Positions 2,546-57,679 of a stretch of DNA of 64,000 nucleotides are shown in pieces. The stretch's first letter is position 1, and every line of letters begins with the position of its first letter. The translations under genes were made by a program, and so were the position numbers. A model generated the notes under the pieces. The model ran no database searches. It was not told the origin of the DNA and saw nothing but the letters and a program-made list of their open reading frames with translations. This stretch comes from Mobula hypostoma (lineage: Eukaryota): assembly GCF_963921235.1 (NCBI RefSeq), contig NC_086107.1:92630001-92694000 (forward strand), given 5' to 3'.

Positions 2546-4124
2546 TTGTATGAACGCCCTTTTATGCTGCTGTACCTGGAGTGCCCACAATGGAACTGAC
2601 GGAGCTGACGAGCGTTTCTCTGAACCCTCTGGAGAATGGCAGAGTTAGCGAGGGAAGAGGGGAGGGGAGAAGGAGCAACTGCGGGTGGGGGCGAGGAGGT
2701 GTAGGTCTGAGTGAGGGTGATGCTTGGTGACATAGGGGAGGGCCGAGTGAAGTGGTAAAACTAGTTGGTAACTAATGTTATTATTGCCATTTGTACTGAG
2801 GTACAGGGAAAAACATTTATTGTTGTCATCCATAGACATCATTTCATTAAGTTCAAAGTAAATTTATTATCAAAGTACATATATTGTATGTCAACATATA
2901 TAACTCTTAGATTAATTTTCTTGTGGACATACTCAATAGAATAATAACCATAATATAATCAATGAAAGACCACAGCAACTTGAGTGTTCAACCGGCGTGC
3001 AAAAGACAACAAACTGTGCACATACAAAAAGAAAGAAAGGAAGAAAGAAAGAAATAAGCAATAAACATTAAGAACATGAAATGAAGAGTCCCTGAAAGTG
3101 AGACCAAAGGTTGTGGGAATATTTCAATGATGTGACAAGCGAAGTTATCTCTTTTGGTTCAAGAGCCTGATTGTTGGCGGGTATTATTTGTTCCTGAACC
3201 TGGTGGTGTGAATCCTGAGGCTGATTATGTCAGTACATTGAAAACAATAACAGAATGCAGAGTAGGGTCGCTGAAACAAGCCCTTCGGCCCAACATGGCC
3301 ATGCTGACCACATCATCATCCCTCCCATAACCCTCCAATCCCCTCCATTCCATGAACCTATCCATATACCTCTTAAATGTTGCAATTATACCCACTTCAT
3401 CTGCCTCATTTGGCAGCTCATTCCTGGTACGCACTACCTTCTGTGCAAAGAAGTTACTTCTCAGGTCTCTTTCCAATCAGAGAATCTGACGGGAAGAGTA
3501 GGGTACAGGGAAAACTGTGGAAGAGGGTGCTGAAGCGTGATCTCTCTGTGAGATGGCGCGGGTATGGTGGGTTGAGCAGCTGGGGAAATCTGGACACATC
3601 TTCTACTCCATAGAAGCAAATTGCCCTCTGCCCCGAGGAACCGCTTCTGAAGCAAATGTTAAGGTGCTCCCTTTAGAGGGGAGCACAGGGAACAAAGGCA
3701 GGAGTGGGTCACTTGGGCCATCAACACTCTGCAGATTCTATAAGTCCAGAGCAGTACACACAATACAGAGATTGAGTAACTCGTCCACCTATCACCTCCC
3801 CAGCTTCTGACTTCATTCTCCCTCCCCACCCACCCACTTTCCCTTTCACCGGGTCTCACCTATCACATGCCAGACTGTACACCTTCCCTTCCTTCCACCT
3901 TCTTATTCTGGCTTCTTCCCCCTTCCTTTCCAGTCCTGGTGAAGGTATTCATCCCAGAACGTTCATTGCTTATTGGTCTCTATGGATGCTGCCTGGCCTG
4001 CTGAGTTCCTCAAAGATTTTGTGTGTGTTGCCTTGATCAGGGTCATTGGGTCGACTCTACTTCTCACACGATCCTATTCCTTCTCAGCTTCCTCACCGAA
4101 TCAGTCCTTACTTTAGGTTTGACA

Positions 4125-4675
4125 CACTGCTGTGTTATGTTGAAGTTGTATAAGATGTTGATCAGGCAAAATTTGGAGCATTGTGTGCAGTTCTGGTCAC
4201 CTACCTACAGAAAAAATATCAATAAGATTGAAGTAGCGCAGAGAAAAATTTACGAGGATGTTGCCCAGACTTGAGGACCTAGGTTACAGGGAAAGATTGA
4301 ATGGGTTAGAACTTTATTCCTGGAGCATCGGGGAATGAGGTGAGATTTGACAGAGATATGCGAAATTATGAGGGGTATAGATAGGGTAAACGAAAACATG
4401 CTTTTTCCAGGTTAGGTGAGACTCGAACTAGAGGTCATGAGTTAAGGGTGAAAGGTGAAATGTTTAAGGGAAACGTGAGGGTGACCTTCTTTGCTTGAGA
4501 GTGTGGATCGAGCATGTTTGATTCAACGTTTAAGTGAAATTTGGATAAGTACCTGGATGGGAGGGGTATGGGGGGGCTTATGATCCAGGTGAGGGTCAAT
4601 GGGACTGGATAGAATGAAAGTTTGGTATGGACTAGATGGGCTGAAGGGCTTGCTTCTCTGCTGTATGACTCGACA
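4125..4675 (+). mobile_element. CR1 LINE 3' fragment
   Basis: MLKLYKMLIRQNLEHCVQFWSPTYRK motif and CR1 3'UTR. Confidence 0.85.
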
Positions 4676-6096
4676 ACTTCTCAGTCGCACCCTGGAAGCA
4701 CACATCCGCAGCCTTCAATAGCGCAGAGAACTGCAGAGCTTTCTGCAAACAGGAATTTCCTCCAGCCTCTGTCCAGTGGGCTCCTCCTTACATGCAGAAA
4801 TAAGCCACGACAGAGTTAACCTGGAATTAGGACTGTCCAAGGATGGAGAATTGGTTTCTTCCCACGATGAAAATCAGTCAAACTTTTATAACAATCTGCT
4901 GGCTTAATGACTGCCATTTTTCTTTCCAAATCCAATTCTCTTTAATTGATTGAATTAAAATTCCCCCGGAGGACTCAATCTCATTGTTCTCGATTCAGGT
5001 CTCTGAATTACTGGTACTGTTAGAAATCAACTATGTTTTGACATCCTCCCCCCAGCCAGGGACAAGAGAGGAACAACGGTTGGACATTGGGGGAGATGAA
5101 CTTTTTTCCACTTTAAAATCATAGGACGCAGAACACAGAACACAGACACACAACAGTACAACACAGGACCAGGCCCTTCAACGCAGGATGTCTATACTGA
5201 ACATATGCTGAATTATTCTCATCCCTTCTGCCCAGACATGATTCATATCTCTCCAGTTCCCATATATTCATGTGTCTGTCTAACAGTATCTTGAACAGCT
5301 CTATTGTATCTGCCCCCACCACCACCCCCTGATCGTGCCCTGATCCAGGAACCCACCACTCTCAGTGTAAGTAAAAACTTGCCCTGCACATCTCCTTTGA
5401 AGTTACCCCCTTTCACCTTAAATAAAGTTTAAGATTAAAACGTACTGTGAAATATTTGATAGCATCAAATCAAATCAGTGAGGATTGTGCTGGGCAGCCT
5501 GCAAGTTTGGCTAGTCTTAAGGCGCCAACATAACATGCCCACCAGTCACTAACCCTAACCATACATTTTTGGACTGTGGGTGGAAACCAGAGCATCTGGA
5601 GGAAATCCACATGGTCATAGGGAAGATGAACAAACTCCTTAAAGACAGTGGCGGGAATTGAACCCTGATCGCTGGCCACCGCACCACCCTCATGACGTCT
5701 CTACCTTGGGGTAAAGGATTCAGGCTGCCTACTCTATCTTCCTCTCTCTCATAATTCTGTTAACATTTTTTGTTAGAAAATTTTTTGTTTTCTCCAGAGA
5801 AAACAACCCATTTTTTGTCCACCCTCTCATTGTCGATCATAGCCTCTAAACCAGGCAGCACCCTGCTGAACCTCTTCTGCACTATCTCCAACCCATCAAT
5901 GTCCTTCGACCAGAACTGCATGCAATAACGTCATGAGATCCTTTACTTCACCCTGAGAGGGCAGCGGACCCCTTGGCTTATTGTACCTTCAACACCCTCA
6001 ATACCACTTCAGTTCATTAGTTCTCTGCAGTGGGTCCACATTGCAGGCAGGAGGGGAGAGCATCCCCAATAAGTTGAGGTATCCAACGCACAGATA

Positions 6097-7310
6097 TAAC
6101 CACATAACAATTACAGCACGGAAACAGGCCATCTCGGCCCTTCTAGTCCGTGCCGAACTCTTACCCTATCCTAGTCCCACCAACCTGAACTCAGCCCATA
6201 ACCCTCCAATCCTTTCCTGTCCATATATCTATCCAATTTAACTTTAAACGCCAACATAGAACCTGCCTCAACCACTTCTGCTGGAAGCTCGTTCCACACA
6301 GCTACCACTCTCTGAGTAAAGAAGCCCCCCTCATGTTACCCCTAAACTTCTGTCCTCTAACACGCAACCCATGTCCTCTTGTTTGAATCTTCCCCACTCT
6401 CAATGGAAAAAGTCTAACCACGTCAACTCTATCAATCCCCCTCATAATCTTAAACACCTCTATCAAGTCCCCACTCAACCATCTACACTCCAAAGAATAA
6501 AGACCTAACTTGTTCAACCTTTCTCTGTAACTTAGGAGAAGAAACCCGGGCAACATTTTAGTAAACCTCCTCTGTACTCTCTCAATTTTATTGACATCTT
6601 TCCTATAATTCGGTGACCAGAACTGTACACAATACTCCAGATTTGGCCTTACCAATGCCTTATACAAATTCAACATTACATCCCAACTCCTATACTCAAT
6701 GCTCTGATTAATAAAGTCAAGCAAACCAAAAGCTTTCTTCACCACCCTATCCACATGAGATTCCATCTTCAGGGAACTATGCACCATTATTCCTAGATCC
6801 CTCCGTTCTAGAGCATTCTTTAATGCCCTACCATTTACCATGTATGTCCTATTTTGATTAGTTCTACCAAAATGTAGCACCTCACATTTTTCTGCATTAA
6901 ACTCCGTCTGCCATCTTTCAGCCCACTCTTCTAACTGTCCTAAATCTCTCTGCAAGTTTTGAAAACCTACCTCATCATCCACGACACCAACTATCTTAGT
7001 ATCATCTGCATACTTACTAATCCAATTTACCACCCCATCATCCAGATCATTAATATATATTACAAACAACATTGGACCCAATACAGATCCCTGAGGCACA
7101 CCGCTACACACCGTCCTCCAATCTGACACACGGTTATCGACCACTACTCTCTGGCGTCTCCCATCTAGCCACTGCTGAATGCATTTAACTACTTCCATAT
7201 TAATGCCTAACGATTGAACCTTCCTAACTAACCTTCCATGTGGAACCTTGTCAAAGGCCTTACTGAAGTCCATATAAACAATATCCACCGTTTTACCCTC
7301 GTCAACTTTC
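6097..7310 (-). mobile_element. CR1 LINE, young, 5'-truncated (RT C-terminal half + 3'UTR)
   Basis: ORF 6302-7288 with [25 protein letters not shown] and LEYCVQFWSP; frameshift near the C-terminus. Confidence 0.95.
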
Positions 7311-7359
7311 TTAAGAAAGTTGAGATACCTGTATAAAATGTGCTAAAACTTTAATGACA

Positions 7360-7600
7360 CCCAGAACAACATACATAAAATGCTGGAGGAACTCAGTAGG
7401 CCAGGCAACATCTATGGAGAGGAATAAACAGTCATTGTTTTGGGCCGAAACCCTTCATTTGTCCCGATGAAGAGTCTTGGCCCGAAACGTCAACTGTTTA
7501 TTCCTCTCCATAGATGTTTCCTGACCTGCTGAGTTCCTCCAGCAGTTTTTGTGTGTGTTGCTCCGGATTTCCAGCATCTGCAGAATCTCTTGTGTTTATG
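7360..7600. mobile_element. PLE-terminus fold-back unit centred on hammerhead motifs
   Basis: Inverted arms at about 7378-7458 and 7467-7547; flanking repeat aatgaca at 7353-7359 and 7601-7607. Confidence 0.8.
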
Positions 7601-9534: not shown

Positions 9535-9870
9535 ACCAGAGATACTGCAGATGCTGGAAATCCAGAGCAACACACACAAAATACAGGAGGAGCTCAGCAG
9601 GACAGGCACCATCTATGGAGGAGAATGAACAGTCGAGGTTTCAGGCTGACACCCTCCATCAGGACTAGAAAGGTAGGGGGGTAGAGGCCAGAATAAGATC
9701 ATCTGCCAGCTTATATTCTTTCCTATCGCTCCCCCCCCATCTTCTTATTCTGGCTGCTGCCTCTGTCCATTCTAGTAGAGTTGCAGCCCAGAACGTCGAC
9801 TGCAAATTCTTCTCCATAGATGCTACCTGAACTGCTGAGTTCCTCCAGCATTTTGAATGTATTGCCAAGA
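9535..9870. mobile_element. PLE-terminus inverted pair
   Basis: Minus-strand terminus (about 9535-9698) followed by a plus-strand terminus (about 9700-9868), both with decayed hammerheads. Confidence 0.75.
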
Positions 9871-11249: not shown

Positions 11250-12354
11250 ATTTAGCAGTACAAGCATGTAGCTTCCTGAAATTGGCGTCACGGGTAGGTA
11301 AAGTGGTAAAGGAGGCGTTTGGCACCTTGGCCTTCATTAGTCAGGGCACCGAGTGTAGGAGTTGGGACGTTATGCTGCAGTGAGACAAGATGTTAGTGTG
11401 GCTGCACCTGGTGTGTCATGTACAGTTTTGGTAACCTCGTTACAGGAACAGCGTCATTAAGCTGGAAAGGGTGCAGAGAAGGTTTACGCAAATGTCATCA
11501 GCGCTCAAGGGAACAGACTTCATTCCTTTGAGCAACACACACAAGTCACTGGAGGAACTGGGCAGGTCAGGCAGACTCGATGGAAACGAGTGGACAGTAG
11601 GCGTCTCAGGCCGAGACCCTTTGTCAGGACTGGAAAGGAAGGGGAAAGACGCCAGAATAAAAGGGTGGGAGGAGGGGAAGGAGGTTAGCTAGAAGGTGAA
11701 AGGTGAAGCCAGGTGGGAGGGAAGGGTTAAAGGCTGGAGAGGCAGGAATCTGATAGGAGATGAAAGCCGACCATTGGAGAAAGGGAGGAAGGAGGGGTAC
11801 CAGGGGGAGATAAGAGGCCAGAGTGGGGAATAGAAGAGGGGAGGGGGAGGGATTTTTTTTTATCGGAAGGATAATCAATATTCATGACATCAGGTTGGAG
11901 GCTACCCTGGCAGAATATAAGGTGTTGCTCCTCCACCCTGAAGGTGTCCTCCTTGTGGCATAACAGGAGGCCGTGCACGCCTTAGGAGCATGAGGCATGA
12001 TCTTAAAGAGGTGCCTAAAATCACGAGGGGAATAGATAGGGTGCCCTCAGGGAAAGGGATTCAGAAACAAACAGGCATAGATTCAAGGTGAGAGGGGAAT
12101 GATTTAACGGAGAGCTGGCGGTATATTCTTCATACCAAGGGTGATGGGGTACATGGAACAAGCTGCCAGAAGAAGTGGTTCCGAATTGGGATCAGAACCA
12201 GGTTTATTCTCACCAGCATGTGTCGTGAAATTTGTTAACTTGGCAGCAGCAGTACAATGCAATACGTGATAATATAGAAAAAAATAAGTAAATCAATTAC
12301 AGAGAGTATATATATGCATATTAAACAGTTCGATTAAAAATGCTGCAAAACGGA

Positions 12355-12400: not shown

Positions 12401-13280
12401 TGAGGTAGTGTTCATGGATCCAATGTCCATTTAGGAATCGGATGGCAGAGGGGAAGAAGCTGTTCCTGAATCACTGAGTGTGTGCCTTCAGGCTTCTGTA
12501 CCTCCTTCCTGATGGTAACAATGAGAAGAGGCCATGTCTGAGGCATTGCTCCTTGAAGATGCCTTGGATACTGCAAAGGCTGGTACCCAAGATGGAGCTG
12601 ACTAATTTTACAACTTTCTGCAGTTTCTTTTGATCCTGTGCAGTAGCCCCCGAACCCCATACCAGACAGATGCAGCCTGTCAGAATGCTCTCCACAGTAC
12701 ATCTATAGAAGTTTTTGAGTGTTTTAGGTGACAAACCAAATTTCTTCAAACTCCTAATGAAGCATAGCCACTGTCTTGCCTTCTTTATAGCCGTGTCAAT
12801 ATATTGGGACCAGGTTAGATCGTCAGAGATCTTGACACCCAGGAACTTGAAATTGCTCACTCTCTCCACTTCTGATCCCTCTATGAGGATTGGTTTGTGT
12901 TCCTTTGTCTTACCCTTCCTGAAGTCCACAATCAACTCTTTCATCTTACTGACGTTGAGTGCAAGGTTATTGCTGTGACACTGCTCAACTAGCTGGTATA
13001 TCTCACTCCTGTACGTCCTCTCATCTCCACCTGAGGTTCTGCCAACAATGGTTGAATCATCAGCAAGTTTATAGTGGTATTTGAGCTATACCTAGTCACG
13101 CATTTGGGGGTACCGAGAGAGTAGCGCGGTGGCTGAGGCTGGTACAATAACATTTAAAGGGCACTCTTACACATTCATGAATAGGAAATGTTGAGAGTCA
13201 AATGCATTAAAATACCAACTGAAAGGAGTATTTTGTCGACATGGACCTATTGGGCCCAAGGGCTTGTTCCATGTTGTCTA
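11250..13280 (+). mobile_element. Old CR1 split by a PLE fragment (11530-11980, -) and a Rex1/Babar-like LINE (12185-13125, -)
   Basis: CR1 segments 11250-11510, 11980-12180 and 13128-13280 are collinear; the inserts encode EEQHLIFCQGSLQPD and KELIVDFRK...NFYRCTVESILTGCI. Confidence 0.8.
12361..12397. repeat. (AT)n microsatellite
   Basis: About 18 perfect AT units in a LINE 3'UTR. Confidence 0.95.
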
Positions 13281-16179: not shown

Positions 16180-17850
16180 ATGAACTCATGTCCTCATACT
16201 TTAATTCTACACTATCCCTCTTGGTTCAGTCCCTTCCCACCTACATCTGTGATACATCTCGAGCTCTCGATCTCTTACCTACCTTTCAATTCCCTGGTCC
16301 TGACCGCCTCGTTTTCACCATGGATGTCCAGTCCTTATGAACTTCTACCCCCACAAAATGGCCTTAAATCTCTCTGCTTCTTTCTCAATAAAAGAACCAA
16401 CCAGTTCCCATCCACCACAACCCTCGTTCGTCTAGCAGGACTAGTCCACACCCTCATCAGTATTTCATTCGACTCCTCTCACTTTATCCAGACTCAAGGT
16501 GTAGCCTTGGGCACCGGTGTGGGCCCCAGCTGTGCCTGCCTCTCCACTTGCTACGTGGAACACTCCGCGTTCCAAGCCTTCCATGCTAATGCTCCCCAGC
16601 TCTTCCTTCGCTACATCAGACACCCATGTTCATCAACTTTGCCCCTAACTTCCACCCTGCCCTTAAATTCACTTGGTCCATTTCTGACACCTCCCTTCAT
16701 TTTTCAATCTCTCCGTCTCCATCTCTGGAGACCAACCGTTGGCCAACACCTTTTATAAACTTACTGATTTCCACAGTTCTCTTGACTCTACTCCTTTCCA
16801 CCCTGTCTCCCGTGAAAGTTCTAGTCCCTTTTCTCAGCTCATTTGTCTATTCACTTCAGTTCCCAGCATGTGGCTTTCCTTTCCAGGACACAAGAGATGT
16901 CCTCCTTCTTTAACGAATGGGGTTCCCTTTTCTCCACCATTGACGCTGCCCTCGCCCGGATCTCCTCCATTTCCTGAAAATCCATGCTCATCCCATCTTC
17001 TCACTGCCTTAACAGAGATAGAGTTCCTCTTGTCTTAACTGCCACTCCTTGAGTCTCCACATCCAATATGCCATTCTCCACAACTTCCGCCACCTCCAGA
17101 GGGATCCCACCACCAAACACCTTTTCCTCACCCCCACCCCCCCCCATCTCTGCTTTCCACAGGGCTTGCTCCCTCTGTGATTCCCTCATCCATTTGTCCC
17201 TCCCAACTAACCTTCCTGGCGAGACTTATCCCTGCAAGTGGCCAAAGTGCCCATTCACCTCCATTCAGGGCCCCAAACAGTCCTTCCAGGTGAGGCAACA
17301 CTTCACCTGCGAATCTACTGGGGCCGTCTATTGTGTCCGGTGCTCCCAATGCAGCCTCCTCTACACCGGTGAGGCCTGTCGTAAGTTGGGAGACTGCTTC
17401 TTTGAGCACTTCTGCTCCATCCACCATAAACAGATCTTCCCAGTGGCCAAATATTTTAATTCCAATTCCCATTCCCGTTTTGGCATATCAGTCCATGGCC
17501 TGCTCTTGTGCCTCCCTCAGGATGGAGGAGAAACAGCATATATTTTGTCAGGATAGCCTCCATCCTGATGGCATGAATATCGATTTCTCCTTTAACCTCT
17601 CCTTCTTCCATTCCTTTTGTGGTCCACTCTCCTCTCCAGCCTCTTACCCTTCCTACCCATCAAGCTTCACCTATCACCTTCTCGCTATCCTCCTTCACCT
17701 GTCCCCACCCCCATTTTTTTATTCTGGCATCTTCCCACTTTGCTTCCAGTCCTAAAGATGAGTATCGGCCCAAAACGTCGACTGTTTATTCTTTTCCATA
17801 GATGCTGCCTGACTTGCTGAGTTCCTCCAGCATTTTGTGTGTGTTGCTGT
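16180..17850 (+). mobile_element. Penelope-like retroelement, longest copy (decayed RT + GIY-YIG + 3' terminal repeat)
   Basis: FTMDVQSL, QTQGVALGT.GPS, FLRYI (RT); VYCVRCSQCSLLYTGE (GIY-YIG); pyrimidine-rich 3'UTR with a decayed hammerhead at about 17746-17785. Confidence 0.88.
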
Positions 17851-18873: not shown

Positions 18874-19769
18874 TCACATGCACAATATACAGTCCATCCT
18901 ACCTTATTACAGTCAGACTCTCCAGCGTTCACTGTCACGCAACATTCATAGAACATAGAACATTACAGCACAATACAGTCCCCTCAGCCCATGATATTGT
19001 ACCGCCATTATAACCTACTCTAAGATCAATCAATTCCTTCCCTCCTACGTAACCTCCATTTCTCTATCATCCGCGTGCCTATCTAAGAGTCACTTAACGC
19101 CCCTAAAGTATCTGCCTCCACCATCGCCCCTGGCAGGGTGTTCCACGCACCCACCACTCTCCGAGCAAAGTAATCTGTCTCTGACATCCACCCCCCATAC
19201 CTTCCTCCGTCCATTGTAAAGTTATGCACTTTTGTATGAGCTGTTACTGCCCTGGGAAATTCTCTGACTGCCCACTTGATCTATGCCTCTTGGCGTTTTG
19301 TACTCTTCTGTCAAATCGTGTGTGAAAGCAGCTGAGTGCGTGGCTGGGAAGCTCGGCGAGATCCTGAGCGGTAAAGATGCAGAGGAGCCAATGGCTCTGT
19401 CTCCACTGTAAGTCATCAGTGATTCAACGCAGGGTGTAAACAGGCAATGTCTGCAGAGTGCACCCTCGGTGTAATTACAGCGCCAGACAGCTTCCCCTCA
19501 ATGGGAGCTGTTTAACATGCAGGCTGATGTGCACAGATATAGTGGCAGTCTGCCACCACTCGATGCGGAGCTGGCTGCAGAGCTAGACCCAGGATAAGGT
19601 CTCTCACAGCTTCGCAGATGCCTCACCTCAAATCAACAGCCCTCACCTACGATTCCCCTCACCCGTTCTTCTCTTTGCCACATCAAACACTCGTCTGGAA
19701 ACTCATAAACGCAAGAGATTTTGCAGATGCTGGAAATCCAGAGCAACACAGACACACAATGCTGGAGGA

Positions 19770-20539
19770 CACTTCAGGGCCCCAGACAGTCCTTCCAGGT
19801 GAGGTGACACTTCACCTGTGAGTCGGCTGGGGTGATATACTGCGTCCGGTGCTCCCGATGTGGCCTTCTATATATTGGCGAGACCCGACGCAGACTGGGA
19901 GACCGCTTTGCTGAACACCTATGCTCTGTCCGCCAGAGAAAGCAGGATCTCCCAGTGGCCACACATTTTAATTCCACATCCCATTCCCATTCTGACATGT
20001 CTATCCACGGCCTCCTCTACTGTAAAGATGAAGCCACACTCAGGTTGGAGGAACAACACCTTATATTCTGTCTGGGTAGCCTCCAACCTGACATTGACTT
20101 CTCTAACTTCCGCCAATGCCCTACCTCCCCCTCGTACTCCATCCGTTATTTATTTTTATACACACATTCTTTCTCTCACTCTCCTGTTTCTCCCTCTGTC
20201 CCTCTGACTATACCCCTTGCCCATCCTCTGGGTCCCCCCCTTGTCTTTCTTCCCGGACCTCCTGTCCCATGATCCTCTCATATCCCCTTTGCCAATCACC
20301 TGTCCAGCTCTCGGCTCCATCCCTCCCCCTCCTGTCTTCTCCTATCATTTTGGATCTCCCCCTCCCCCTCCCACTTTCAAATCTCTTACTAACTCTTCCT
20401 TCAGTTAGTCCTGACGAAGGGTCTCGGCCTGAAACATCGACTGTACCTCTTCCTAGAGATGCTGCCTGACCTGCTGCGTTCACCAGCAACTTTGATGTGT
20501 GTTGCTTGAATTTCCAGCATCTGCAGAATTCCTGTTGTG
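19770..20539 (+). mobile_element. Penelope-like element 3' part (GIY-YIG + terminal repeat), young, with TSD
   Basis: IYCVRCSRCGLLYIGETRRRLGDRFAEH...EEQHLIFCLGSLQP; tgctggagga duplicated at 19760-19769 and 20540-20549. Confidence 0.92.
20406..20443 (+). ncRNA. Hammerhead motif in a young PLE copy; core intact, stem III G>A
   Basis: tagtc-CTGACGA-agggtctcggcct-GAAAC-ATC-gactg; the differences from consensus are CpG-type transitions. Confidence 0.7.
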
Positions 20540-21259
20540 TGCTGGAGGAACTCAGCAGGTCAGGCAGTGTCTATGGAGGGGAATAAACAGTCGATGTTTC
20601 AGGCCCGAAATGTAGACTGTCACAAGGCTCGTCTTCATGAGCGTTAACGTTTATAATGGAATGTCAGTGCTTACAGGCAGATCCAAGATGTTAGTCAAAA
20701 CCTTCAAACGGACCACAGCTGTAGGTCATCTGGATGTCCGCACATAGGAGGTCCCAGTTTGGTGAGTCCGGGGCCAAGGTCTGGAGGTCAGAGGCACAGA
20801 AGGTGGCCCATCCTGGGGTTGGAGTCCCAGGTCAGCAGGTCCAGAGGTCCAGAGGTGTCCCAACGTGGTGCAGGAGTGTGAGTAGGACGGGGTTTGTCTT
20901 GCTGTTGTTGCATTTGTCTTGTATGTTGGCTGTGTGTTGTCGACACGTGTTAGTCATTGACACAAACAACGGATTTCACTGTGTGTTTCAATGCACATGT
21001 GATAAATAAATCTAATCTGGAATCTTGAACCTTGCTGTGGGATCGCAGACATGCCAATACCTACAGGAAGTCCCAGGTGATTGCCTGGAGTGGATCAATA
21101 TTTAGCAGAGTGATATTAAGTCAGTATTCATAGAAGTAACTTGGAAACACAAGGGATTCTGCAGATACTGGAAATCTCTTCATCATCCATATAGCTTTTG
21201 TTCATGGCATTAAACAGTGTCTTTCAGGAGGAAAACTCAGTAATGAACATTTTTGTGCG

Positions 21260-22640: not shown

Positions 22641-25600
22641 GAATGCTTGAAAGTCACTATGCTTAAACATGTATGAATGAATTGTTGGGGAATTATAGAG
22701 GGGGTTGGCGGACAATTTGATACCAGGCTCTTTCCTTTATTGTGCATTAAATAAATCCCTCCATGGTACTTCCTCCTCACTCAACCATAAAACACCCAGA
22801 CGTTAGGGATGTGATGGTGCTGGAGGAAAAGCACAGGAGATCCACCCAGATGTTGTCTGGAACTTGGCGTTCCAGTGACGAGGAGAGACTGGACATTAGA
22901 AGTCAGTGGAGGGAACCTGATGGAGGTGTGAGAATTACCAAGATCATGGATAGGAAGATAGGTGGAAAATTTCCCCTATTACAATATCTAAGACTAGAAG
23001 GTCTTAGTTAAGGTCAAAGTAAGAGGTTTTGGAGGGGACCTGAGGAAGAGGATTTCCACCCACAATGTGTATGGAATCTCCCACACGCTCCCTGAGAGGG
23101 TGGAGGAGCTGGAGGCATGTCAGAAGTATCTCGATGAGCTCCGAGATCACTAAGGTATAGAAGGCAACTGATGAAGTGCTGGTGAATGTGGACCAACACA
23201 GTCGCATAACGGTTAGTGTAGCGCTTTACTGCACCAGTGATCGGAAGGTCAGGGTTCAATTCCCTCCACTGTCTGGAAGAAGTTTGTATGCCCTCCCCAC
23301 TACTGCCCCGGTTTCCTCCCACGTTCCAAAGATGCACGGTTAGGTTTAGTAAGTTGCGGGCGTGCGATGTTGGCGCGGGAAGCGTGGCAACACTTGCAGG
23401 CTGCCCCAGCACACCTTCGGGCTGTGCTTCTGGCTGCCTCCCCCTTCCTTTCCAGTCCTGATGAAGCACCTCAGCCTGAAATATTGGCTCTTCTTGAGTT
23501 CCACCAGCATTTTGCGCGTGTTATTCTGGATTTCCAGTGAAGAAAAAGAATTTCTGGATGTATATTGTATATAGTTCTATGACATTAAATGTACCTATTG
23601 AAACCCATTGATCTACAGAATCTCTTGTGTTCAGGCCGTGTTGGTCATTGATGCAAATGACACATTTCACAGTATGCTTCGATGTACATGTGACAAATAA
23701 AGCCAATCTTTAAACCTTATCTTCAGTACATTGCGGTCAACTTCATGGTGTGCTGAGAGAACGCATTCATCAAATGTCAAATAGAGACTTCATTCTGAGG
23801 TAAAAGAGAATTATTGGCATGCTGGCATTACTGTTTACAATCCTAGCAGGTCAGTGGGACTAGGCAGGAAAACAGGGCAGCACAGATTAGATGGGCTGAA
23901 GGACCTGTTTCCCTTCTCTCTGACTCAGTTACAGAGCTGGAGCAGGTTGTGGATTTGAAAGTTTTGAGAAATCTTGCAGCTCAGCCAGGCTGGAGGCCGT
24001 TTATCGTCACTGCATGTAGGCCCTTGATAAATGGGAGCTGGTGCAAGCTGTAGTCCGGGCAGCGGAGTTATGGATTGGATCGTTAACTGCGGGGATAGAT
24101 GTCCGCCCAGCCAGTGCACGGACATTGCTCAGCCTTGAACTAATGAGTGGATGAGGGCCTCAACAGCAGCTGAGCTGGACCAGAGAAGGTTCCGGACGAG
24201 AAAGTGGGCCGTGTTGATACCTGTGGAGATCTGACCAGAAGACTCAATGTGGAAGAACACAGAACAAGTTACAGAGTTGCTGTGACACAAACCTCAGTGC
24301 CAGTGCAAAGAAATTCAGGATTCAAGATCCAGTGTTCAAGTCTATTTGAGACACACAGTGAAATGTGCCATTGCGTTAACAAACAACACGCAACTGAGGA
24401 GGGGCAGGTGGCAGTCCGCAAACGTCCCCACACATACTGGCTCCTTGATAGCGTGGCCACAATGCTCGGCAAAACGAAGCAGAACACAACAAGCACCAAA
24501 GCAACAACAGCAAAACAGGCTCAACCTCCCCCCACCCCCCCCCCCAGCCACATCCACGGTTCTTTAACCTCAAACAAGCCGCCTTCTTCGACATCCAGCC
24601 TCCAGTGGGCTCGGGCTCAGATTCCGGCCTGCAAACACCGAGCTTCAACTTCCACCGCTGACTCGCAGAGATTCGCAGACTCAGCTTGGGCCAAAGGGAC
24701 TCGACTTCAGAACTTCTGAATCGACTCTCAGGCTTCAATCCTCATCATCGATCACCACACTCCAGACTCACCAATGACGGGACCCCGAACACTAGGGGTC
24801 GAACTCTGGTCGCACTGATTCGCGAACCCAGGGGCTCATTGAAACTTGTTCCTTCTGCCTGCACTGAACTCTGACTCTGGAACCCGCCAACAACTCAGTG
24901 ACCTGCGTGGGGGGCTGGGGGTCCACATCTACTTTCTGCCATCCTGACATCCAGCCGTGGATGCCCCACGTCTGCCTCACTGGCCTTTGAAAACAAAGGC
25001 CTCGACTTTGGCCTAACCTCTAATTCCCCCACATCATTGTCTCTAAACTCCAACCCTCACATCTGCTCTAAAGGAACGTCCTTCTGCTCTGAGGCTGTGT
25101 TCTCGGGATCCTGGACCCTTCCACTATTGGAGGCTTCCTCTCCATGTCCACTCTATCCAGGCCTTTCAATGTTTGACAGCGTTCAATGAGATTCCCCGCC
25201 CCCCGGTTTCTTCTAAACTCCAGTGAGTGCAGGCCCAGAGCCATCAAACACTCCTCAGATATTAAAACTTTGATTCCTGGAACTATTCCTCTCTAGGCCC
25301 TCTGCTAAATGCTATGACATTGGCTGAGAATTTTGGAAGCAGAGGTTTGCCGTTGTTCTGCATTTAATTCGAGCTACTGTTGAGCTGACTGACTGTCTTG
25401 GTAATATTTTTTATTTGTTTGAAATTCAATGAATTATCTAGCAGCCAAACCACTGAAAGGAATAAACTAGTGTCTTAATTACTGTATTTGACTTTATTAC
25501 ACAGCCTAAAAATCTTGGGCAAATTATTTGCGTGTTTATAAGTAATTTACTGTGGAACATATCTGTTGTCACTGCCTGGAATGAAGGCTTTCCTACTGCC

Positions 25601-29075: not shown

Positions 29076-29140
29076 TTTAATTGGAAACCAAGTGTACTAT
29101 ATCCAAGTGTGATCTAATTTGTAGTTCCACAATATTTTAT

Positions 29141-30830: not shown

Positions 30831-30840
30831 TCCCTTGCAG

Positions 30841-31390: not shown

Positions 31391-31570
31391 GTGAGTTGTA
31401 TTGGGGTATTGAGGGGTGGGGGGAGGTTTATTTGGCCTTGTGGGCACATCATAGAGTGATGGAGTCACACAGCACTGAAACAGGCCCTACAGCTCTTCTG
31501 GTCCATGCTGACCAAGATTCCTGTCTAAGTCAGTCCCATTTGCCAGCATTCGGTCCATATCCCTCTAAAC

Positions 31571-35040: not shown

Positions 35041-35394
35041 TTCATCAGCATTAATTAGGTGTAAACTTTGAGTAACTGTTAGCATTGATCGAGCAACACT
35101 GGCGTCTCCCTGGCATTGATTGAGTGGGACCTGGAACGAGGTAAATGTTGATTGGGTGTTAGTGTTGATGGAGCAGGGGCAGATCCTTGTTAGTGTAAAT
35201 TAGGTGCTAATATTATTAAGTTGTACCTGGTGTACCACACTGAAATAGCATAATATTGTAATGCCATTAGATACAGGAGCAGAATCAGGCCATTCTGCCC
35301 ATCGAGTCTGCTCCGCCATTTAATCATGCTAAGTTTTCATCCCTCTCAACCCCATTCTCCTGCATTCTCCCCTTAACCATTGACACCCTTACTT

Positions 35395-36010
35395 ACAAAA
35401 TACCGGATGAACTCAGCAGGTCAGGCAGCATCTAGAGAGACAAAGAAACAGTTGATGTTTTGGGACGAACCCTTCAGCTGGACTGGAAAGACAGGGGACA
35501 GAAGCAGAATAAGAAGGTGGTGGAAAGGAGAGGTGAAAGCTGGCAAGTGATAGGTGAAACCAGGTGAGGGGGAAGGTGGTTGAGTGGTGAAACCAGGTGA
35601 GGGGGAAGGTGGGTGCGTGGGGGTAAAGAGGAATAAATGAGAACCTGGGAGGTGATTGGTGGAAGAGGTAAAGGGCTGAAGAGGGAGGATTCTAACAGGG
35701 GAGGAGGGTGGACCATGGGGGAAAGGGAAGGAGGGAGGGACACCAGAGTGAGATGACGGGCAGATGAGGCAAAGAGAAGGGGAATGAGGATAACCAGAAT
35801 GGGAAAGAAAAAAGAGCAAAGGGAACGGGGGTGGGGGGGGGAAGAAATAAACGTGTTGGAGAAATCGATGTTCATACCATCAGTTTGGAGGCCACCCATA
35901 CGGAATATGAGGTGTTGCTCCCCGAAGATGCTGCCAGACCTGCTGAGTTCCTCCAGCATTTTGTGTGTGTTTCTCTGAATTTCCAGCATCTGCAGACTCT
36001 CTTGTGGTTA
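35395..36010 (-). mobile_element. PLE 3' fragment with inverted terminal repeat (about 35927-36005, +)
   Basis: EQHLIFRMGGLQTDGMNIDFS on the minus strand, with PLE termini at both ends in opposite orientation. Confidence 0.82.
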
Positions 36011-40354: not shown

Positions 40355-40990
40355 GATTCCTCTCCTCCTTCCCTTTCTTCCATGGTTCATTTTCCTCTCC
40401 TATCAGATTCCTCCTTCTTCAGTCTTTTATCTTTTCCTCCTATCACCTCCCAGCTTCCCACTTCATCCTCCCCCACCCACTCACTTTCCCCATCGTCTGG
40501 TCTCACCTATCCCCTGCCAGCTTGTACTCCTTCCCCTCCTGCCACCTTCTTATTCCGGCTTCTTTCCGTTTCCTTCTCAATCCTGATGAAGGGTCTAGGC
40601 CTGAAATGTTGACCATTTATTCCTCTTACCACTTCTCTTCTCCTCACCTGCCCATCACTTCCCTCTAGAGCTCCTCCTCCTTCCCTTTCTCCCATGGTGC
40701 CCTCTCCTCTCCTATCGGATTCCTTCTTCTTCAGCCTTTTCCACCTATCACCTCCCAGCTTCTTACTTCATCTGCCCTTCCCCCTCACCTGGTCTCACCT
40801 ATCACCTACCACCTTGTACTCCTTCTCATCTCTCACCTTCATATTCTGGTTCCCCCCCTTCTGTCCAATCCTGATGAAGGGTCTCAGCTCAAATCATCAA
40901 TTATGTATTGTCCTCCATCGATGACGCCTGACCGCATGAGATCCTCCAGGATTTTGCGTGTGTTCCCGCTGCAGAATCAATTTTGTTTAA
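40355..40990 (+). mobile_element. Tandem pair of PLE 3' terminal repeats
   Basis: Two direct copies, each with CTGATGA-agggtct (40583 and 40871). Confidence 0.82.
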
Positions 40991-47715: not shown

Positions 47716-47782
47716 ATACACACAAACACACACAAACATACACGTATACACGCACACCATACATACACATATACACACATAA

Positions 47783-47827
<45 letters not shown>

Positions 47828-47863
47828 CACACATACACACACACACACACACACACATATATA

Positions 47864-47915
<52 letters not shown>

Positions 47916-47956
47916 CACACATAAACACATACACACACAAATAAACAGATATATAT
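47716..47956. repeat. Compound (CA)n/(TA)n microsatellite, left half
   Basis: About 240 bp of CA/TA; continues at 49407-49530. Confidence 0.95.
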
Positions 47957-49405
47957 AGAACATAGAACATAGAATAGTACAGCACAGTACAGGCCCTTCA
48001 GCCCACAATGTTATGCCGACCCTCAAACCCTGCCTCCCATATAACCCCCCCACCTTAATCTCCTCCATATACCTGCCTAGTTGTCTCTTAAATTTCACTC
48101 ATGTATCTGCCTCCACCACTGACCCAGGCAGTGTATTCCACACACCAACCACTCTCTGAGTAAAAACCTTCCTTTAATATCCCCCTTGAACTTCCCACCC
48201 CTTACCTTAAAGCCATGTCCCCTTGTATTGGGCAGTGGTGCCCTGGGGAAGAGGCGCTGGCTGTCCACTCTATCTATTCCTCTTATTATCTTATATACTT
48301 CTATCATGTCTCCTCTCATCCTCCTTCTCTCCAAAGAGTAAAGTCCTAGCTCCCTTAATCTCTGATCATAATCCATACTCTCTAAACCAGGCAGCATCCT
48401 GGTAAATCTCCTCTGTACCCTTTCCAATGCTTCCACATCCTTCCTATAGTGAGGCGACCAGAACTGGACACAGTACTCAAGTGTGGCCTAACCAGAGTTT
48501 TACAGAGCTGCATCATTACCTCGTGACTCTTAAACTCTATCCCTCAACTTATGAAAGCTAATACCCCATAAGCTTTCTTAACTACCCTATCTACCTGTGA
48601 GGCAACTTTCAGAAATCTTTGGACATATACCCCCAGATCCTTCTGCTCCTCCATACCACCAAGTATCCTGCCATTTACTTTGTACTCTGCCTTGGAGTTT
48701 GTCCTTCCAAAGTGTACCACCTCACACTTCCATGGGTTGAACTCCATCTGCCACTTCTCAGCACACTTCTGCAACCTATCAATGTCTCTCTGCAATCTTT
48801 GACAATCCTCTACACTATCTACAACACCACCAACCTTTGTGTTGTCTGCAAACTTGCCAACCTACCCTTCTACCCCCACATCCAGGTTGTTAATAAAAAT
48901 CACGAAAAGTAGAGGTCCCAGAACCGATCCTTGTGGGACACCACTAGTCACAATCCTCCAATCCAAATGTACTCCCTCCACCATGACTCTCTGCCTTCCG
49001 CAGGCAAACCAATTCTGAATCCACCTGGCCAAACTTCCCTGGATCCCATGCCTTCTGACTTTCTGAATAAGCCTACCATGTGGAACCTTGTCAAATGCCT
49101 TACTAAGATCCATATAGATCACATCCACTGCACTACCCTCATCTATATGCCTGGTCACCTCCTCAAAGAACTCTATCAGGCTTGTTCGACATGATCTGCC
49201 CTTCACAAAGCCATGCTGACTGTCTCTGATCAGACCGTGATTCTCTAAATGCCCATAGATCCTATCTCTAAGAATCTTTTCCAACAACTTTCCCTCCACA
49301 GACGTAAGGCTTACTGGTCTATAATTACCTGGACTATCCCTACTACCTCTTTTGAACAAGGGGACAACAATAGCCTCCCTCCAATCCTCTGATATCATTC
49401 CCATA
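47955..49405 (-). mobile_element. CR1 LINE, young, 5'-truncated
   Basis: [48 protein letters not shown]; (catagaa)n tail at 47955-47974. Confidence 0.95.
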
Positions 49406-49406
49406 G

Positions 49407-49431
49407 ACAACACACACATATATACACATAA

Positions 49432-49463
<32 letters not shown>

Positions 49464-49530
49464 ACATAAACACATACGCATACATATACACACATAAACA
49501 CAAACACACACTTACACATATGAACACATA
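49407..49530. repeat. Compound (CA)n/(TA)n microsatellite, right half
   Basis: Same composition as 47716-47956. Confidence 0.92.
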
Positions 49531-50095
49531 ATATGTTGGAGGTACTCAACAGGTCAGGCAGCATCTATGGAAGTGAATAATCAGTTGACATTTCAGGTCG
49601 AGATCCTTCTTCGTCAGAACTGGAAAGGAAGGCAGAAGATGCCAGAATAAAAAAGTGGGGGGAGAAGGAGGACTAGCTAGAAAGTGATTGGTGAAGCCAG
49701 GTGGGTGAGAAACGCAAAAGGCTGGAGAGGAGAGTGGACCATGGGGGAAAGGGAAGAAGAGGGGCAGCAGGGGGAGGTGATAGGCAGGTGAGGAGAAGAG
49801 GTAAGATGTCAGTGGCAAAAGAGGAGGCCATGGACTGACATGTTGGGACGGGAACGGGGATGGGAATTAAAATGGATGGCCACCGGGAAATTCCACTTTG
49901 AGCAGATGGAGTGGAGGTGCTCGACAAAGTGGTCCTCCAATTTACGTTGGGTCCCACCAATGTAGAGGAGGCTGCATTGGGAGCATTGGATACAATAGAT
50001 CACCCCGACAGATTCACAGATGAAGTGTTGCCCAGCCGGGAGGGACTGCTTGGGGCCCGGAATGGAGGTGAAGGAGGAACTGAATGGACAGGTGT
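49525..50095 (-). mobile_element. PLE 3' fragment; its tip is displaced to 47673-47725
   Basis: IYCIQCSQCSLLYIGGTQRKLEDHFVEH; the terminal repeat is split at its internal acacac run. Confidence 0.85.
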
Positions 50096-51334
50096 AACAT
50101 ATCTGTCACGTCCACTATACCCTGGTATGTGTAACAACAATAAACCTGCCTACCATCTTATTTTAAGTATTGGCAGGATCGGAGTTGTGATTCCTAATCC
50201 TTAATTGGACTATTGTGTTCTGTTCTGATCACCTCATTATAGGGAGGATGTGGACACATTAGAGAAGGTGTTGAGGAGATCTGCCAGCATGTTGCCCGGA
50301 TTAGAGAGCATGTTTTATGAGGATAGGTTAAGCGAGCTAGGGTTTTTCTCTTTGGAACGAAGGATGAGAGGCGATTTGATAGAGGTGCACTGGATGACGA
50401 GAGGCACAGAGTGGACAGCCAGAGACTTTTTCCCAGGGCAGAAATGGTTAATAGAAGGGACATAATTTTGAGGTGATTGGTGGAAATGATAGGGGGATGA
50501 CAGAGGAAGGCTTTATGATTTGCTGTAGAATGTAGGCATTGGCGGTGAACCAGTCTGTATATGCCCACCCCGGCTGTCGTTGCCAACTTGGTAATGAGCC
50601 ATTTCTCTGACCTGCCGCAATTACACTGAACAGAGACGATTGTTAGTACCACCCCTATGAAGTTACATTGCCATTGCTCCTGCCTATCCATTCTGATCCC
50701 TTAACTAAACCTGAAAACTCTAACTGGATTTGGGAGACTATGGATACATTTGACCTTAGAGCATTCTCTTATATTCGAATCATAAGACCACAAGACATAC
50801 GAGCAGAATTAGTCCATTCAGCCCATTGAGTCTGCAACCCCATTCTCGTGTCTTCTCCCCATAACCTTTGACACTTTACAGTCTCCACTTTAAATATACC
50901 TAATGACTTGGCCTTCGCAGCCATCTGTGGCAATGAATTCCACAGATTCAGCATCCTCTGGTTAAATTCCACATCATCTCTGTTTTAAAGGGTTGTCCTT
51001 GTATTCTGAGGCTGGGCCCTATGGTCCTAGGCTCTCCCTCTAAAGGAAAGATCATCCCAGGTTCTTCATCAGCTTTGGGCAAGGCCAATGGTTGTGAAGA
51101 GTGAAGTACAGACACACAATTTTCTCTCTGCTTCTGACTCACCATACCAGAGATCCGGGTTCTATCCTGACCTCAGGGGCTGCACATTCTCCCTGTAACC
51201 TCGTGGGTTTTCCCCAGGTGCTCTGGTTTCCTCCCACATTCCGAAGCTGTGCAGAGTCAGCAGTTTAGTTGGCCTCTGTGAGTTGCCCATGATGTGTGGG
51301 TGAGGGGTGTAATCTGTGGTTAAAAATTAAAAGT

Positions 51335-54817: not shown

Positions 54818-55009
54818 GTAGTTTCACCAGATAAGCTTACCTGCTCTCCTTTCAGCCGAGGCAGTTACACACTCTGACCCCACTTCGGTTCACTCACACT
54901 GCTCCATCCCACCCCCACACAATAATAGAGCGCTGATGTAATCTATCACACGCCTGTCTCCACGTGAAGGAGGGAGGTGGGAGAAGCCCGACTATAGCCT
55001 TGTCTTCCT

Positions 55010-55580
55010 CCACGACGAGGCCACTCTCAGGTTGAAGGAACAACACCTCGTATTCCATCTGGGTAGCCTCCAACCTGACTGCGTGAACATTGATTTCTCT
55101 AACTTCCAGTAATATCTCCCCCATCCCACCTCCATCTCTCTTTTTCCATTCTCCATTCTGGTTACCCTCTCACCCCTTCTCCTCTCCTCCCCTGCCCATC
55201 ACCACCCCTCCTCCTTCACTAACTCCCATAGTTTACTGTCCTCTCCTATTAGATTCCTTCTTCAGCCCTTGACCTCTTCCACCTATCACCTCCCAGCTTC
55301 TGACTTCCCACCCACCTTTACCCTTCTATCCCTCAGCTTCTGACTTCCCACCCACTTTTACCCTTCTACCCCTCAGCTTCTGACTTCCCACCCACACACC
55401 TTACCCCTCACCAGGTCTCACCTGCCAGCCTGTACCCCTTCCTCTCCCCTCCCCCACCTTCTTACTTTGGATTGTTCCCTCTTCCTTTCCACTCCTGACG
55501 AAGGGTTTTGGCCCAAAGCATCAGTCCTCCACAGATGCTTCCTGGTCTGCTGAGTTCCTCCAGCAATTTTCATGTGCTGC
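55010..55580 (+). mobile_element. PLE 3' fragment filling most of intron 4, with an internal 40-bp x3 duplication (about 55294-55413)
   Basis: GIY-YIG tail, cagcttctgacttcccacccac at 55294/55334/55374, decayed hammerhead at 55495. Confidence 0.82.
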
Positions 55581-55771
55581 TTGGGGCGATAACTCCTGGC
55601 TGGTTTCTGTGTACTGCTTCTCCCTGCGTAGGGTGCCGAGGCCAATTACAGCAGGGGTCGGTGGGGGTGGGACTGGTCTCTGCGAATATTGGGGTGAGTG
55701 AATCAATGGGCTCAAGGCTTTGGCGTACCTCAGCCCGAGAGATGTCCCAGCAGCCTGCTCTCCTCCTGCAG

Positions 55772-55943
55772 ATCCCTACGTGAAAGCCTCGCTGATATGC
55801 GAAGGGAGGCGGCTGAAGAAGCGGAAGACATCGATAAAGAAGAACACGCTGAACCCGGTGTACAATGAGGCGCTGGTCTTCGACATTCCCAATGAGAACA
55901 TGGATCATGTCAACGTGATCATCGCCGTCATGGACTATGATTG
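55772..55943 (+). CDS. SYT3: Synaptotagmin-3 coding exon 5 (C2B polybasic region); gene continues beyond the window
   Basis: Acceptor ctctcctcctgcag|AT; (D)[56 protein letters not shown](C); donor TG|GTGAGA; 172 nt, phase 2. The expected next exon (IGHNEVIG...) was not seen before 64000. Confidence 0.95.
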
Positions 55944-57679
55944 GTGAGAACCCCACTGGGCAAGCGATTCCAGTTTGTTATCTCCTGTGGTGTCTGAGAT
56001 AAGATTGACTCTTAAAGTCCATGTGTGCATAGGGTTAATAGCGTGTGTACGTGTGTGACGTACATCTGTGCGTGTTTGGCAAACATATGTGTAAAAATTA
56101 GCTTTAGTTGTCAGGGATGTCAAAACATATAGTGAAATGCGTCGCTTAAATCATTGTTTGTCACATGCTTGCGAGCGTTGTCATGCTTCCAGTGCCAACA
56201 TAGCGTGCCCACAAGTCACTAACCCTAATTCGTACATTTTTTTTGGAGTGTGGGAGGAAACTGGAGCACGTTCACATGGAGAACGTACAAACAGCGGCCA
56301 GAATTGAACCCCCGATCACTGACATTGCAGTAGTATTACCCTGACCATTATGCTATGTGCCGCCTGTAGATGTAGGAGTGTTTCTGTGCAATTGGTAGTA
56401 CATCCGTGTGTGGATATGTTTGTGACAGCGTGTGTCCCACACATACTAACTCTTCCCCCCCCCCCCCAGGCACAGTCCTGCGCACGCTGACTCTCCCTCA
56501 ATTCTCATTCGAGAGGCGACAGGTCTAAAGGCGCGACACTGCCAGTAGAATCCAGAGTTTAGTGCGCAAGCCTCTGTCAGCGAGATCAAAGCCTCGACCT
56601 TCTGGCTTAGATATGAACACGCAGTGCGCTAAGAGGCCTGTGGTCGAATGAGTTCCTCCCCATCCAGAATGTGTGGCGCCACCTACAGGCTGCCACCAGC
56701 ACATTCTTGGGTCCGTTGGTTCTTAACGCAAACGATGCATTTCACTGTATGTTTCGATGTACTTGTGATAAGTAAATTAGTCTGAATATGAATCCTCATT
56801 TTCATCAGCTGCTCCGAGTTAAAATTCGGCCTCAGTTTGAGGAGACAATGTCCTATCTGAACACTGTGTAACTGGCTACAATGGGCCATTTGATCTAGTC
56901 TCTGGGAACATGGGTGTTGCAATGTAATCAGGTGAATATGTGAGAAAGGGTGGTCAGCAAACCCAGTCAGTCTGATCTGCACACTTCCATATTAACCCTT
57001 CCCTTCCCAGAGCCACACTGATCGGTCGTTTCATCACCTACCTACCATCCAGCGCAGTCTGTACTCTCAATGGCCAGGTCAGTGGGGAGAGGCCATTTAC
57101 CCCCTTTCAGAGCCATGCTACCCCTCTATGAGGCAGATTTTAATGTTATCAACTGCAGCTCTTATAGGGAGCAAGACCGATGCCTGGATAAGTAGTGATG
57201 GTGAGTGTAGGGATTTGACTGAACTTTTTCTCATAACGTATAGCGGGTCAACAATGATTTATTGAAGGTGGTGGAGATTCTGCAGTTGCTGGAAATCTTG
57301 AGCAACACAGACAGAATACTGAAGGAACACAGTAGGTCAAGCAGCATATATGGAAGGGAGTGAACAGTCAATGTTTGAGGTCCAGTCCCTTCAGCAAGCG
57401 TGGGAAGAGATGAATAGATCAGGAGAAGAAAGATCCTTTTTGATAAAAACCGGACATCCCAATGAAGTTTTATATGATATGTTCAAGTTCACTGTCATTC
57501 AACTGTATAGATAAACGAAACGATGTTCCTGTGGGACCAAGGTGCAAAACACAGTATGTATATCGCATACAGTACATAAAATAATTTTAGCACAATAATA
57601 TTAAGAAATAATAAAGTAAGTGTTTTGCAGATGTACAAGTTGACATGAAGTGCATATATGACATATTGTTAAATAGAAG

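Follow-up and report, generated by a model that had tools for sequence, protein, structure and literature searches.

The 64,000-nucleotide stretch of the Mobula hypostoma genome analysed here (NC_086107.1, positions 92,630,001 to 92,694,000 of assembly GCF_963921235.1; hereafter the window) contains part of a SYT3-like gene and about twenty copies of a short repeat, which an initial annotation had read as minimal hammerhead ribozymes carried by the termini of Penelope-like elements (PLEs). Our analysis indicates that one PLE family very probably gave rise to all these sites, as 3' ends of copies that are truncated at the 5' side and for the most part ancient; its pseudo-long terminal repeat (pseudo-LTR) carries a predicted hammerhead. 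Minimal PLE hammerheads have been known since 2014 (Cervera and De la Peña, 2014, PMC4209133; reviewed in PMC6765202). No cartilaginous fish is named in the text examined or in the two searchable supplements of PMC4209133, and among the matches listed in a literature search none dealt with PLE hammerhead ribozymes in sharks or other cartilaginous fishes, save a 2026 preprint on retrozymes that includes one chondrichthyan. Added here are a cartilaginous-fish genome with a very high number of such motifs (about 100,750 with an intact core), apparently intact full-length copies of 1,043 codons and an amplified subfamily in which core residue A6 is changed to C (A6C). The uncut site in all insertions and the amplification of the A6C subfamily bear on the motif's role.

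The repeat and its Penelope-like carrier

Inspection of the sequences at the 21 sites listed in the initial annotation revealed one common repeat at all of them, of the rough form ..ttcctttCCAGTC CTGATGA A GGGTCTCGGCCC GAAAC GTC GACTG tttattcctctccatagatgctgcctg.. as derived from these sites. Every site is thus a recognisable copy, with the minus-strand copy at 20540-20606 lacking the CUGANGA half. A first profile, built from 8 genomic copies, matched all 21 sites and gave 22 matches in the window at E<=1e-5, 24 at E<=1e-3 and 30 at E<1. After two iterations the profile gave 26 window matches, 20 of which include the hammerhead part, 11 on the plus and 9 on the minus strand. The consensus inferred beforehand also proved right, since the 3.48-Gb assembly contains 1,635 exact matches to its 28-nt core (804 forward and 831 reverse) and none to the reversed control (0 + 0). 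No copy in the window lies within 3 mismatches of the 38-mer consensus. The bare pattern CTGANGA-N(8-20)-GAAAC occurs twice in the window (20411, plus; 26136, minus) where 0.55 occurrences are expected, and at least two were found in 11 of 100 shuffles, so that the pattern alone is not beyond chance there. The homology of the whole repeat of about 100 nt is beyond chance in the window.

Copies across the genome share a common 3' end and have continuously variable 5' starts. A genome-wide search for the GIY-YIG domain returned 39 matches, with the tail at most 1.5 kb away in 8 of the 20 loci examined, and at locus L002 the C-terminal coding region of a PLE stops about 330 nt upstream of the motif. 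A protein search with the frame of locus L039 uncovered complete open frames of 1,043 amino acids at two places among the 150 candidates scored. These are locus L055 (G000:C2:157227501-157235500) and locus L056 (G000:C12:171222001-171230000), for which positions are given in reverse-complement coordinates. In L056 the frame (3056-6184) has a direct repeat on either side (2581-3100 and 6094-6612, 96% identical), with intact motifs at 2971 and 6483. In L055 the intact motifs lie at 3001 and 6515, the ATG at 3089, 61 nt past the predicted cut site, and the stop at 6214. The spacing of the motifs is 3,514 bp in L055 and 3,512 bp in L056. L055 is a tandem of about 1.9 units: the period is 3,516 bp, and over 3,132 bp the neighbouring units have 99.7% identity. 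Both loci therefore have direct terminal repeats (pseudo-LTRs) of 520 bp with the motif in both repeats, which bears out the PLE-terminus carrier proposed earlier. The 3.5-kb unit consists of the 1,043-codon frame, a 3' untranslated region of about 300 nt, the 38-nt motif and a tail of about 100 nt that overlaps the ATG of the next unit.

The frames of L055 and L056 are identical at 986 of 1043 positions and contain RVT_1 at residues 534-696 (E 6e-5 and 2e-5) and GIY-YIG at residues 946-1020 (E 1e-3 and 2e-3). The nearest Atlas clusters of the 1,043-residue frame carry RVT_1, GIY-YIG and HTH_animal at a score of 0.98. With this frame as query, nine window tails proved to have coding remnants 300-400 nt upstream, on their own strand, and these GIY-YIG remnants tie the window copies to the same carrier. 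Window tails with upstream remnants end near 11531, 17848 (the long copy 16182-17848), 20538, 27252, 28483, 35394, 49525 and 55583. Neighbouring copies at most 1.5 kb apart numbered 14 pairs among the first 100 genomic core matches, and 10 of the 14 were in minus-then-plus order, head to head, as judged by eye. The window holds three head-to-head pairs (7458/7461, 9666/9775 and 34945/34943).

A published counterpart in organisation is Poseidon PAc of Anolis (Frangieh et al., 2024, PMC11167929), a vertebrate PLE that likewise combines reverse transcriptase (RT) and GIY-YIG with a hammerhead in the pseudo-LTR by the start of the open reading frame (ORF), and whose genomic copies terminate in a defined tail downstream of the motif. 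In PAc, however, the ORF starts inside the motif and the cut falls 26 bp after the ATG, whereas here a stretch of 61 nt separates the predicted cut from the ATG downstream.

That the frames of L055 and L056 are free of stops and that L055 holds tandem units of 99.7% identity are hints that the family was recently, or still is, active in this genome.

A subtelomeric PLE of another type, here called c12-type (L034, L041 and L043), was considered as carrier and rejected, as the tails found there are separate 5'-truncated insertions of the L002/L055 type between its copies and telomeric repeats. The 529-residue frame of this related family scores 29.7 bits for GIY-YIG, above the cut-off, and 28.7 bits for RVT_1, just below the cut-off of 29.6 bits. 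Arrays of the c12-type PLE stand at or near contig ends (L043 and L044, G000:C12:199011001-199023498, at the contig end; L041 on C130; L029 and L032 on C18), with a 3' untranslated region of about 1.4 kb and degenerate (CCCTAA)n between copies, and many of the 39 GIY-YIG matches lie within 1 Mb of the start of the contig coordinates. To our knowledge, the telomere-associated PLEs described so far are without a nuclease, as Gladyshev and Arkhipova reportedly found in 2007. A nuclease-bearing subtelomeric PLE may therefore merit separate attention.

Anatomy of the predicted minimal hammerhead

The motif is 38 nt long and opens with a helix I of 5 bp that is itself open (CAGUC with GACUG; UAGUC in the young subfamily). 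The first part of the core, C3-U4-G5-A6-(U/C)7-G8-A9, is followed by one bulged extra A and by a helix II of 4 bp (GGGU with GCC(C/U)) with a CUCG loop. The second part of the core, G12-A13-A14, leads into A15.1-C15.2-G16.2-U16.1 without a loop and then into C17, so that ACGU stands in place of helix III and there is no loop 3. This is the anatomy of a minimal type-I hammerhead, with CUGAYGA and GAAA as core boxes, and supports the initial annotation on this point. The extra A after A9 is present in nearly all copies. The pair 10.1-11.1 (columns 18/31 of alignment A1) is G-C in 24 and G-U in 25 of the 54 distinct rows. ACGU directly follows GAAA in the consensus and in 100,750 genome-wide matches to CTGANGA-N13-GAAACGTH (50,186 + 50,564), as compared with 103 for the reversed control (57 + 46), and the commonest variant genome-wide combines C7 with U11.1.

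The accessory features reported for minimal PLE hammerheads are a nucleotide between 9 and 10.1, a G10.1-C11.1 pair, a palindromic 15.2-16.2, a helix I of 4-5 bp, a location in both terminal repeats and motif pairs on opposite strands 100-700 bp apart (PMC4209133). Judged by these features, the best reading of the motif from its sequence is a genuine PLE minimal hammerhead. The minimal hammerheads of metazoan PLEs (Cercyon of Schistosoma; Xena, Poseidon and Neptune of fishes; PMC4209133) are alike in being of type I, with a helix I of 4-5 bp, no helix III and a palindromic 15.2-16.2, and likewise in their location in both repeats, in occurring mostly as solo truncated copies and in their close opposite-strand pairs. 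They differ in helix II, which has 7-8 bp in Schistosoma and 4 bp here, and in the pair 10.1-11.1, which is G10.1-C11.1 in the published motifs, while the commonest young variant here has G10.1-U11.1, or A-U in another register (PMC4209133). A parallel for a helix III that is too short alone, with activity expected only when two copies pair, exists in the dimeric 'double hammerheads' of newt satellite 2 and avocado sunblotch viroid (Forster et al., 1988, as cited in PMC6765202 and PMC4209133), and dimers of PLE hammerheads have been treated by Lunse, Weinberg and Breaker (as cited in PMC6765202). The newt and viroid motifs, however, have a helix III of 1-2 bp with a small loop and contacts between loops 1 and 2, whereas the ray motif lacks loop 3 and has an open helix I.

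Several results weigh against this assignment of motif and carrier. Firstly, cleavage after GUC (C17) is a prediction from the sequence. Secondly, nearest-neighbour calculations do not favour the hammerhead fold: the monomer is predicted to prefer a rod with GA(C/U)G and CGUC base-paired, and the predicted minimum for two molecules is an extended duplex of -31.7 kcal/mol and not a hammerhead dimer, although two molecules also allow a nested, domain-swapped double hammerhead of -12.9 or -17.9 kcal/mol. These predictions are not decisive, since nearest-neighbour energies ignore the tertiary structure of the core. Thirdly, the Rfam hammerhead models (type I, II, III, HH9 and HH10) matched nothing in the window, whether at the gathering threshold or at E<=10, and nothing at E<=10 in L055, despite its two intact motifs. 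This silence is to be expected, because the Rfam models require helix III. Fourthly, the domain scores in the full 1,043-residue frame (RVT_1 23-25 bits, GIY-YIG 19-20 bits) fall below the Pfam cut-offs, and the frame had no match among solved structures.

Lastly, helices I and II gave no covariation beyond shuffles, a lack that the initial annotation had named in advance as grounds for giving up the ribozyme. The alignment comprised 60 of 62 copies from the window and all loci, two with large deletions being left out, and by five measures 184, 74, 400, 51 and 357 of 500 shuffles reached the observed value, none of the measures exceeding the shuffles. In the same material 83.9% of cells were paired, as compared with 16-43% with the partners slid. 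The copies form one closely related lineage that for the most part decays neutrally, which gives the test low power and makes it weak in both directions. The stems of subfamilies A, B and C are alike save for C-G as compared with U-G at the outer pair of helix I and G-C as compared with G-U at 10.1/11.1. Also on the negative side, no subfamily with an alternative palindrome for ACGU was found genome-wide, with AGCU occurring 135 times (control 24). The AUAU variant (2,707 copies; control 66) is heterogeneous and forms no subfamily.

Role of the motif in the element

All 20 window copies extend across the predicted cut site, and in young copies the end lies about 100 nt past it. Since the copies hold both sides of this site, the template that was reverse-transcribed must have been uncut at its 3' hammerhead, and since every copy continues past the site, cleavage was probably dispensable for insertion, as far as can be judged from the inserted sequences. 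The identity of adjacent tandem units (99.7%) as compared with that between loci (96%) would be consistent with two or more units inserting together.

Two base pairs without a loop cannot close intramolecularly, and therefore the active fold needs two copies that pair ACGU with ACGU. The active form would then be a domain-swapped dimer, probably aided by the protein of the element, and it would form between the two terminal-repeat copies of a tandem transcript. In tandem copies the 520-bp pseudo-LTR places a hammerhead about 60 nt upstream of the ORF. Cleavage, if any, would trim the 5' leader about 60 nt before the ATG or resolve multimeric tandem transcripts, and it would not be a step of insertion. 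For the Anolis PLE it was reported that the hammerhead cleaves only with the protein of the element and is dispensable for insertion in vitro, that RNA-seq shows no ends at the cut site and that reverse transcription has its start internally, at the 'tail' (Frangieh et al., 2024, PMC11167929). The uncut insertions in the window and the genome agree with these findings. The sequencing runs found to hold the ray element are 23 Logan contig sets, not on record as RNA; four of them were aligned and gave no begin or end places.

Copies of the A6C subfamily have a CUGCUGA core and their own diagnostic flanks, CTCCAGTC ... GACTGTACTCT. Otherwise intact copies number 2,276 genome-wide, as compared with 5 for the control, and the A6C type makes up 5 of the 38 copies of the unbiased sample (window and random regions). 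In L018 and L045 the A6C tails come after PLE coding remnants. A6 is an invariant residue of the hammerhead core, and its change to C is reported from classical mutagenesis to abolish activity.

The amplification of this subfamily is one reason to consider, as a tentative alternative, that the motif is kept mainly as a structured platform for binding or positioning the RT and nuclease near the start of reverse transcription, and that its chemistry is vestigial or incidental. In the same direction point the reverse transcription of all copies across the predicted cut site, the conservation of the whole 100-nt tail, and not of the core alone, among subfamilies, and the predicted ground state, which is a rod or duplex. 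Published activity in vitro is low (PMC4209133), and the Anolis activity depends on protein and is dispensable for insertion (PMC11167929). On the other hand, the young and most abundant variants retain every invariant core residue, with 100,750 core-intact copies in the genome. PLEs of distant phyla also share this core, and those of fungi have hammerheads with good cleavage in monomeric form (PMC4209133). The weight of the A6C subfamily itself depends on the reported loss of activity. We consider it possible, yet rather doubtful, that the hammerhead would be unneeded as a ribozyme for amplification and that the motif would act chiefly as a protein platform or on the upstream copy only. If this is true, the dated subfamilies of this genome, in which about 100,000 copies are intact and from several hundred thousand to about 1 million are decayed, would provide a natural mutagenesis set for the role of the PLE hammerhead.

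Decay, copy number and the copies in the window

Most window copies have lost parts of the motif. CUGANGA is retained in 8 of the 20 hammerhead-bearing copies, GAAA in 10 and both boxes in 6, and in a single copy the boxes, both helices and ACGUC are all intact. CG has often become TG or CA, for instance in the change of ACGUCG to AUGUUG or ACAUCA. A sample of ten 10-kb regions from a seeded random draw (100 kb in total) contained 23 profile matches, as compared with 26 in the 64-kb window. The matches of the sample are spread over 7 of its ten regions, and 18 include the hammerhead part. One of these 18 has both boxes, and one is fully intact. The density noted in the window thus extends beyond it, and since it is typical of the random sample, several hundred thousand to about 1 million relics can be expected genome-wide by rough extrapolation. 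The initial annotation had counted about 20 ribozyme motifs and a ribozyme load of one per 3 kb. The count holds for copies of the repeat, but not for ribozymes, as only six keep both boxes, one of them fully intact, and the rest are relics; the load falls to roughly 1 per 35 kb when the approximately 100,750 core-intact motifs are counted. This number is still about 10 times the 4,000 of coelacanth and 9,000 of Xenopus that were called remarkable in PMC4209133, with descriptors that differ between the studies. We infer that the solo copies in the window are inert relics.

Could the short copies belong to a separate non-autonomous element, either a short interspersed nuclear element (SINE) or an animal non-LTR retrozyme, with the hammerhead tail as its only part in common with the PLE? 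Eleven of the 20 window copies have no recognisable coding remnant upstream. Moreover, animal non-LTR retrozymes also have type-I hammerheads related to those of PLE pseudo-LTRs, and the preprint mentioned above (Li et al., 2026, 10.64898/2026.07.22.740005) derives retrozymes, with units of 51-972 nt and one chondrichthyan included, from PLE pseudo-LTRs. Nevertheless, the start points of the copies vary continuously, as 5' truncation predicts, and the close same-strand pairs 25906/26129 and 40578/40866 share only 75-96 nt around the motif, which makes them overlapping truncated copies and not tandem units. Retrozymes reportedly consist of tandem units of 170-400 nt, as Cervera and De la Peña are said to have described in 2020, and no head-to-tail arrays of short hammerhead units were found in the window. 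No tRNA-like head was noticed either, with no search aimed at one. A separate element therefore seems improbable, and truncated copies of the PLE itself remain the preferred explanation.

The intronic copies might also be active ribozymes that cut the precursor mRNA of the host gene. The name SYT3 given to this gene can be maintained at the level of a SYT3-like subfamily, since the single open frame at 30818-31456 on the plus strand, a complete C2 domain (PF00168, E 2e-31) that is not part of the repeat, has synaptotagmin-3 as its best solved relative (3hn8/1dqv, E ~5e-84) ahead of synaptotagmin-1 (1e-61). Eleven of the copies lie on the strand of the gene. None of these 11 is fully intact, however, and in the best of them, at 20407, ACAU breaks the palindrome. 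With the C2 exon on the plus strand, the sole intact motif (26081-26164, minus) is antisense to the host gene. A lone minimal motif, furthermore, cannot fold by itself. Cutting of the host transcript is thus very unlikely, and the window is better annotated as having dead retrotransposon tails in introns than functional host-gene ribozymes. Neither the Rfam models nor ORF-based annotation detects these copies.

That the hammerhead match is a chance resemblance inside a repeat can practically be dismissed: in the window the pattern by itself falls short of significance (2 as compared with 0.55 expected), but the genome has 100,750 matches against 103 in the reversed control, all the published accessory features (PMC4209133) are present and the motif sits inside the terminal repeats of a PLE.

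A young insertion in the window is the 5'-truncated PLE at 19754-20538 on the plus strand, which is 92.7% identical to the full unit and has a GIY-YIG remnant at 19808-20269 (Pfam E 3.4e-5). Its hammerhead at 20407-20444 retains both boxes with ACAU for ACGU, and the copy ends about 100 nt past the predicted cut. An inverted partial tail without the CUGANGA half (20540-20606, minus) forms a hairpin with the part of this copy at 20390-20538. An older 5'-truncated PLE on the plus strand (16182-17848) keeps RT/GIY-YIG remnants of residues 545-1040 at 16182-17590, followed by a decayed tail at 17748-17844. The sole fully intact motif, in the minus-strand copy at 26081-26164, has CUGAAGA, one-sided changes in helix II that keep 4 pairs, and GAAACGUC.

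Further 5'-truncated copies retain shorter coding remnants of the 1,043 residues. On the minus strand these are the copies at 11531-11999 (residues 997-1039 at 11871-11999; decayed tail 11534-11631), 28483-29077 (residues 974-1042 at 28888-29077; tail 28484-28567 with the boxes retained and AUGU), 35394-35920 (residues 1020-1041 at 35855-35920; tail 35394-35484 with a GCUGA core of A6C type) and 49525-50099 (residues 915-1010 at 49815-50099; decayed tail 49525-49612). On the plus strand they are the copies at 26628-27252 (residues 983-1037 at 26628-26776; decayed tail 27151-27247) and 54993-55583 (residues 1005-1043 at 54993-55109; tail 55493-55576 with GAAA lost).

The other copies are PLE tails. 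Both boxes are lost in the decayed hammerhead of the 3' tail at 3932-4028 (plus). The decayed tail at 7369-7458 (minus) is the head-to-head partner of that at 7461-7558 (plus), which retains GAAA and ACGUC and has a mutated CUGA box. The tails at 9570-9666 (minus; A9 to G and ACCU) and 9775-9860 (plus) are decayed. Boxes are retained at 23454-23521 (plus), with AUAU for ACGU and a broken helix II, and at 34943-35035 (plus), with AUGU, head to head with a partial copy at 34883-34945 (minus). They are also retained, again with AUGU, at 40580-40626 (plus), where the tail is ended early by the next copy. The CUGA box is lost in the decayed tail at 25856-25942 (minus) and the GAAA box in the tail at 40868-40963 (plus), and the decayed tail at 57305-57398 (minus) has a GCUGA core of A6C type.

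Inverted pairs of truncated tails form long hairpins at 20390-20606, 7369-7558, 9570-9860 and 34883-35035. The first of these is a tail-to-tail pair that, at 20424-20608, weakly matches the transposon-derived microRNA model MIR820 (33 bits, E 0.11); the other three are head to head.

Remnants of other retroelements lie on the minus strand at 6305-7342, 48865-49545 and 12474-13085 (RVT_1 E 2.8e-22 and 3.2e-26, ALKBH8_N-like E 2.5e-6). A tblastn search with the full PLE frame gave no match to them at E<=1e-3, and as the frame does not match them, they are probably long interspersed nuclear elements. The window also contains a minisatellite at 27941-28378, with about 61 copies of the 7-nt unit TCTATGC or, alternatively, a 42-nt period, and long (AC)n runs at 47718-47939 and 49410-49511.

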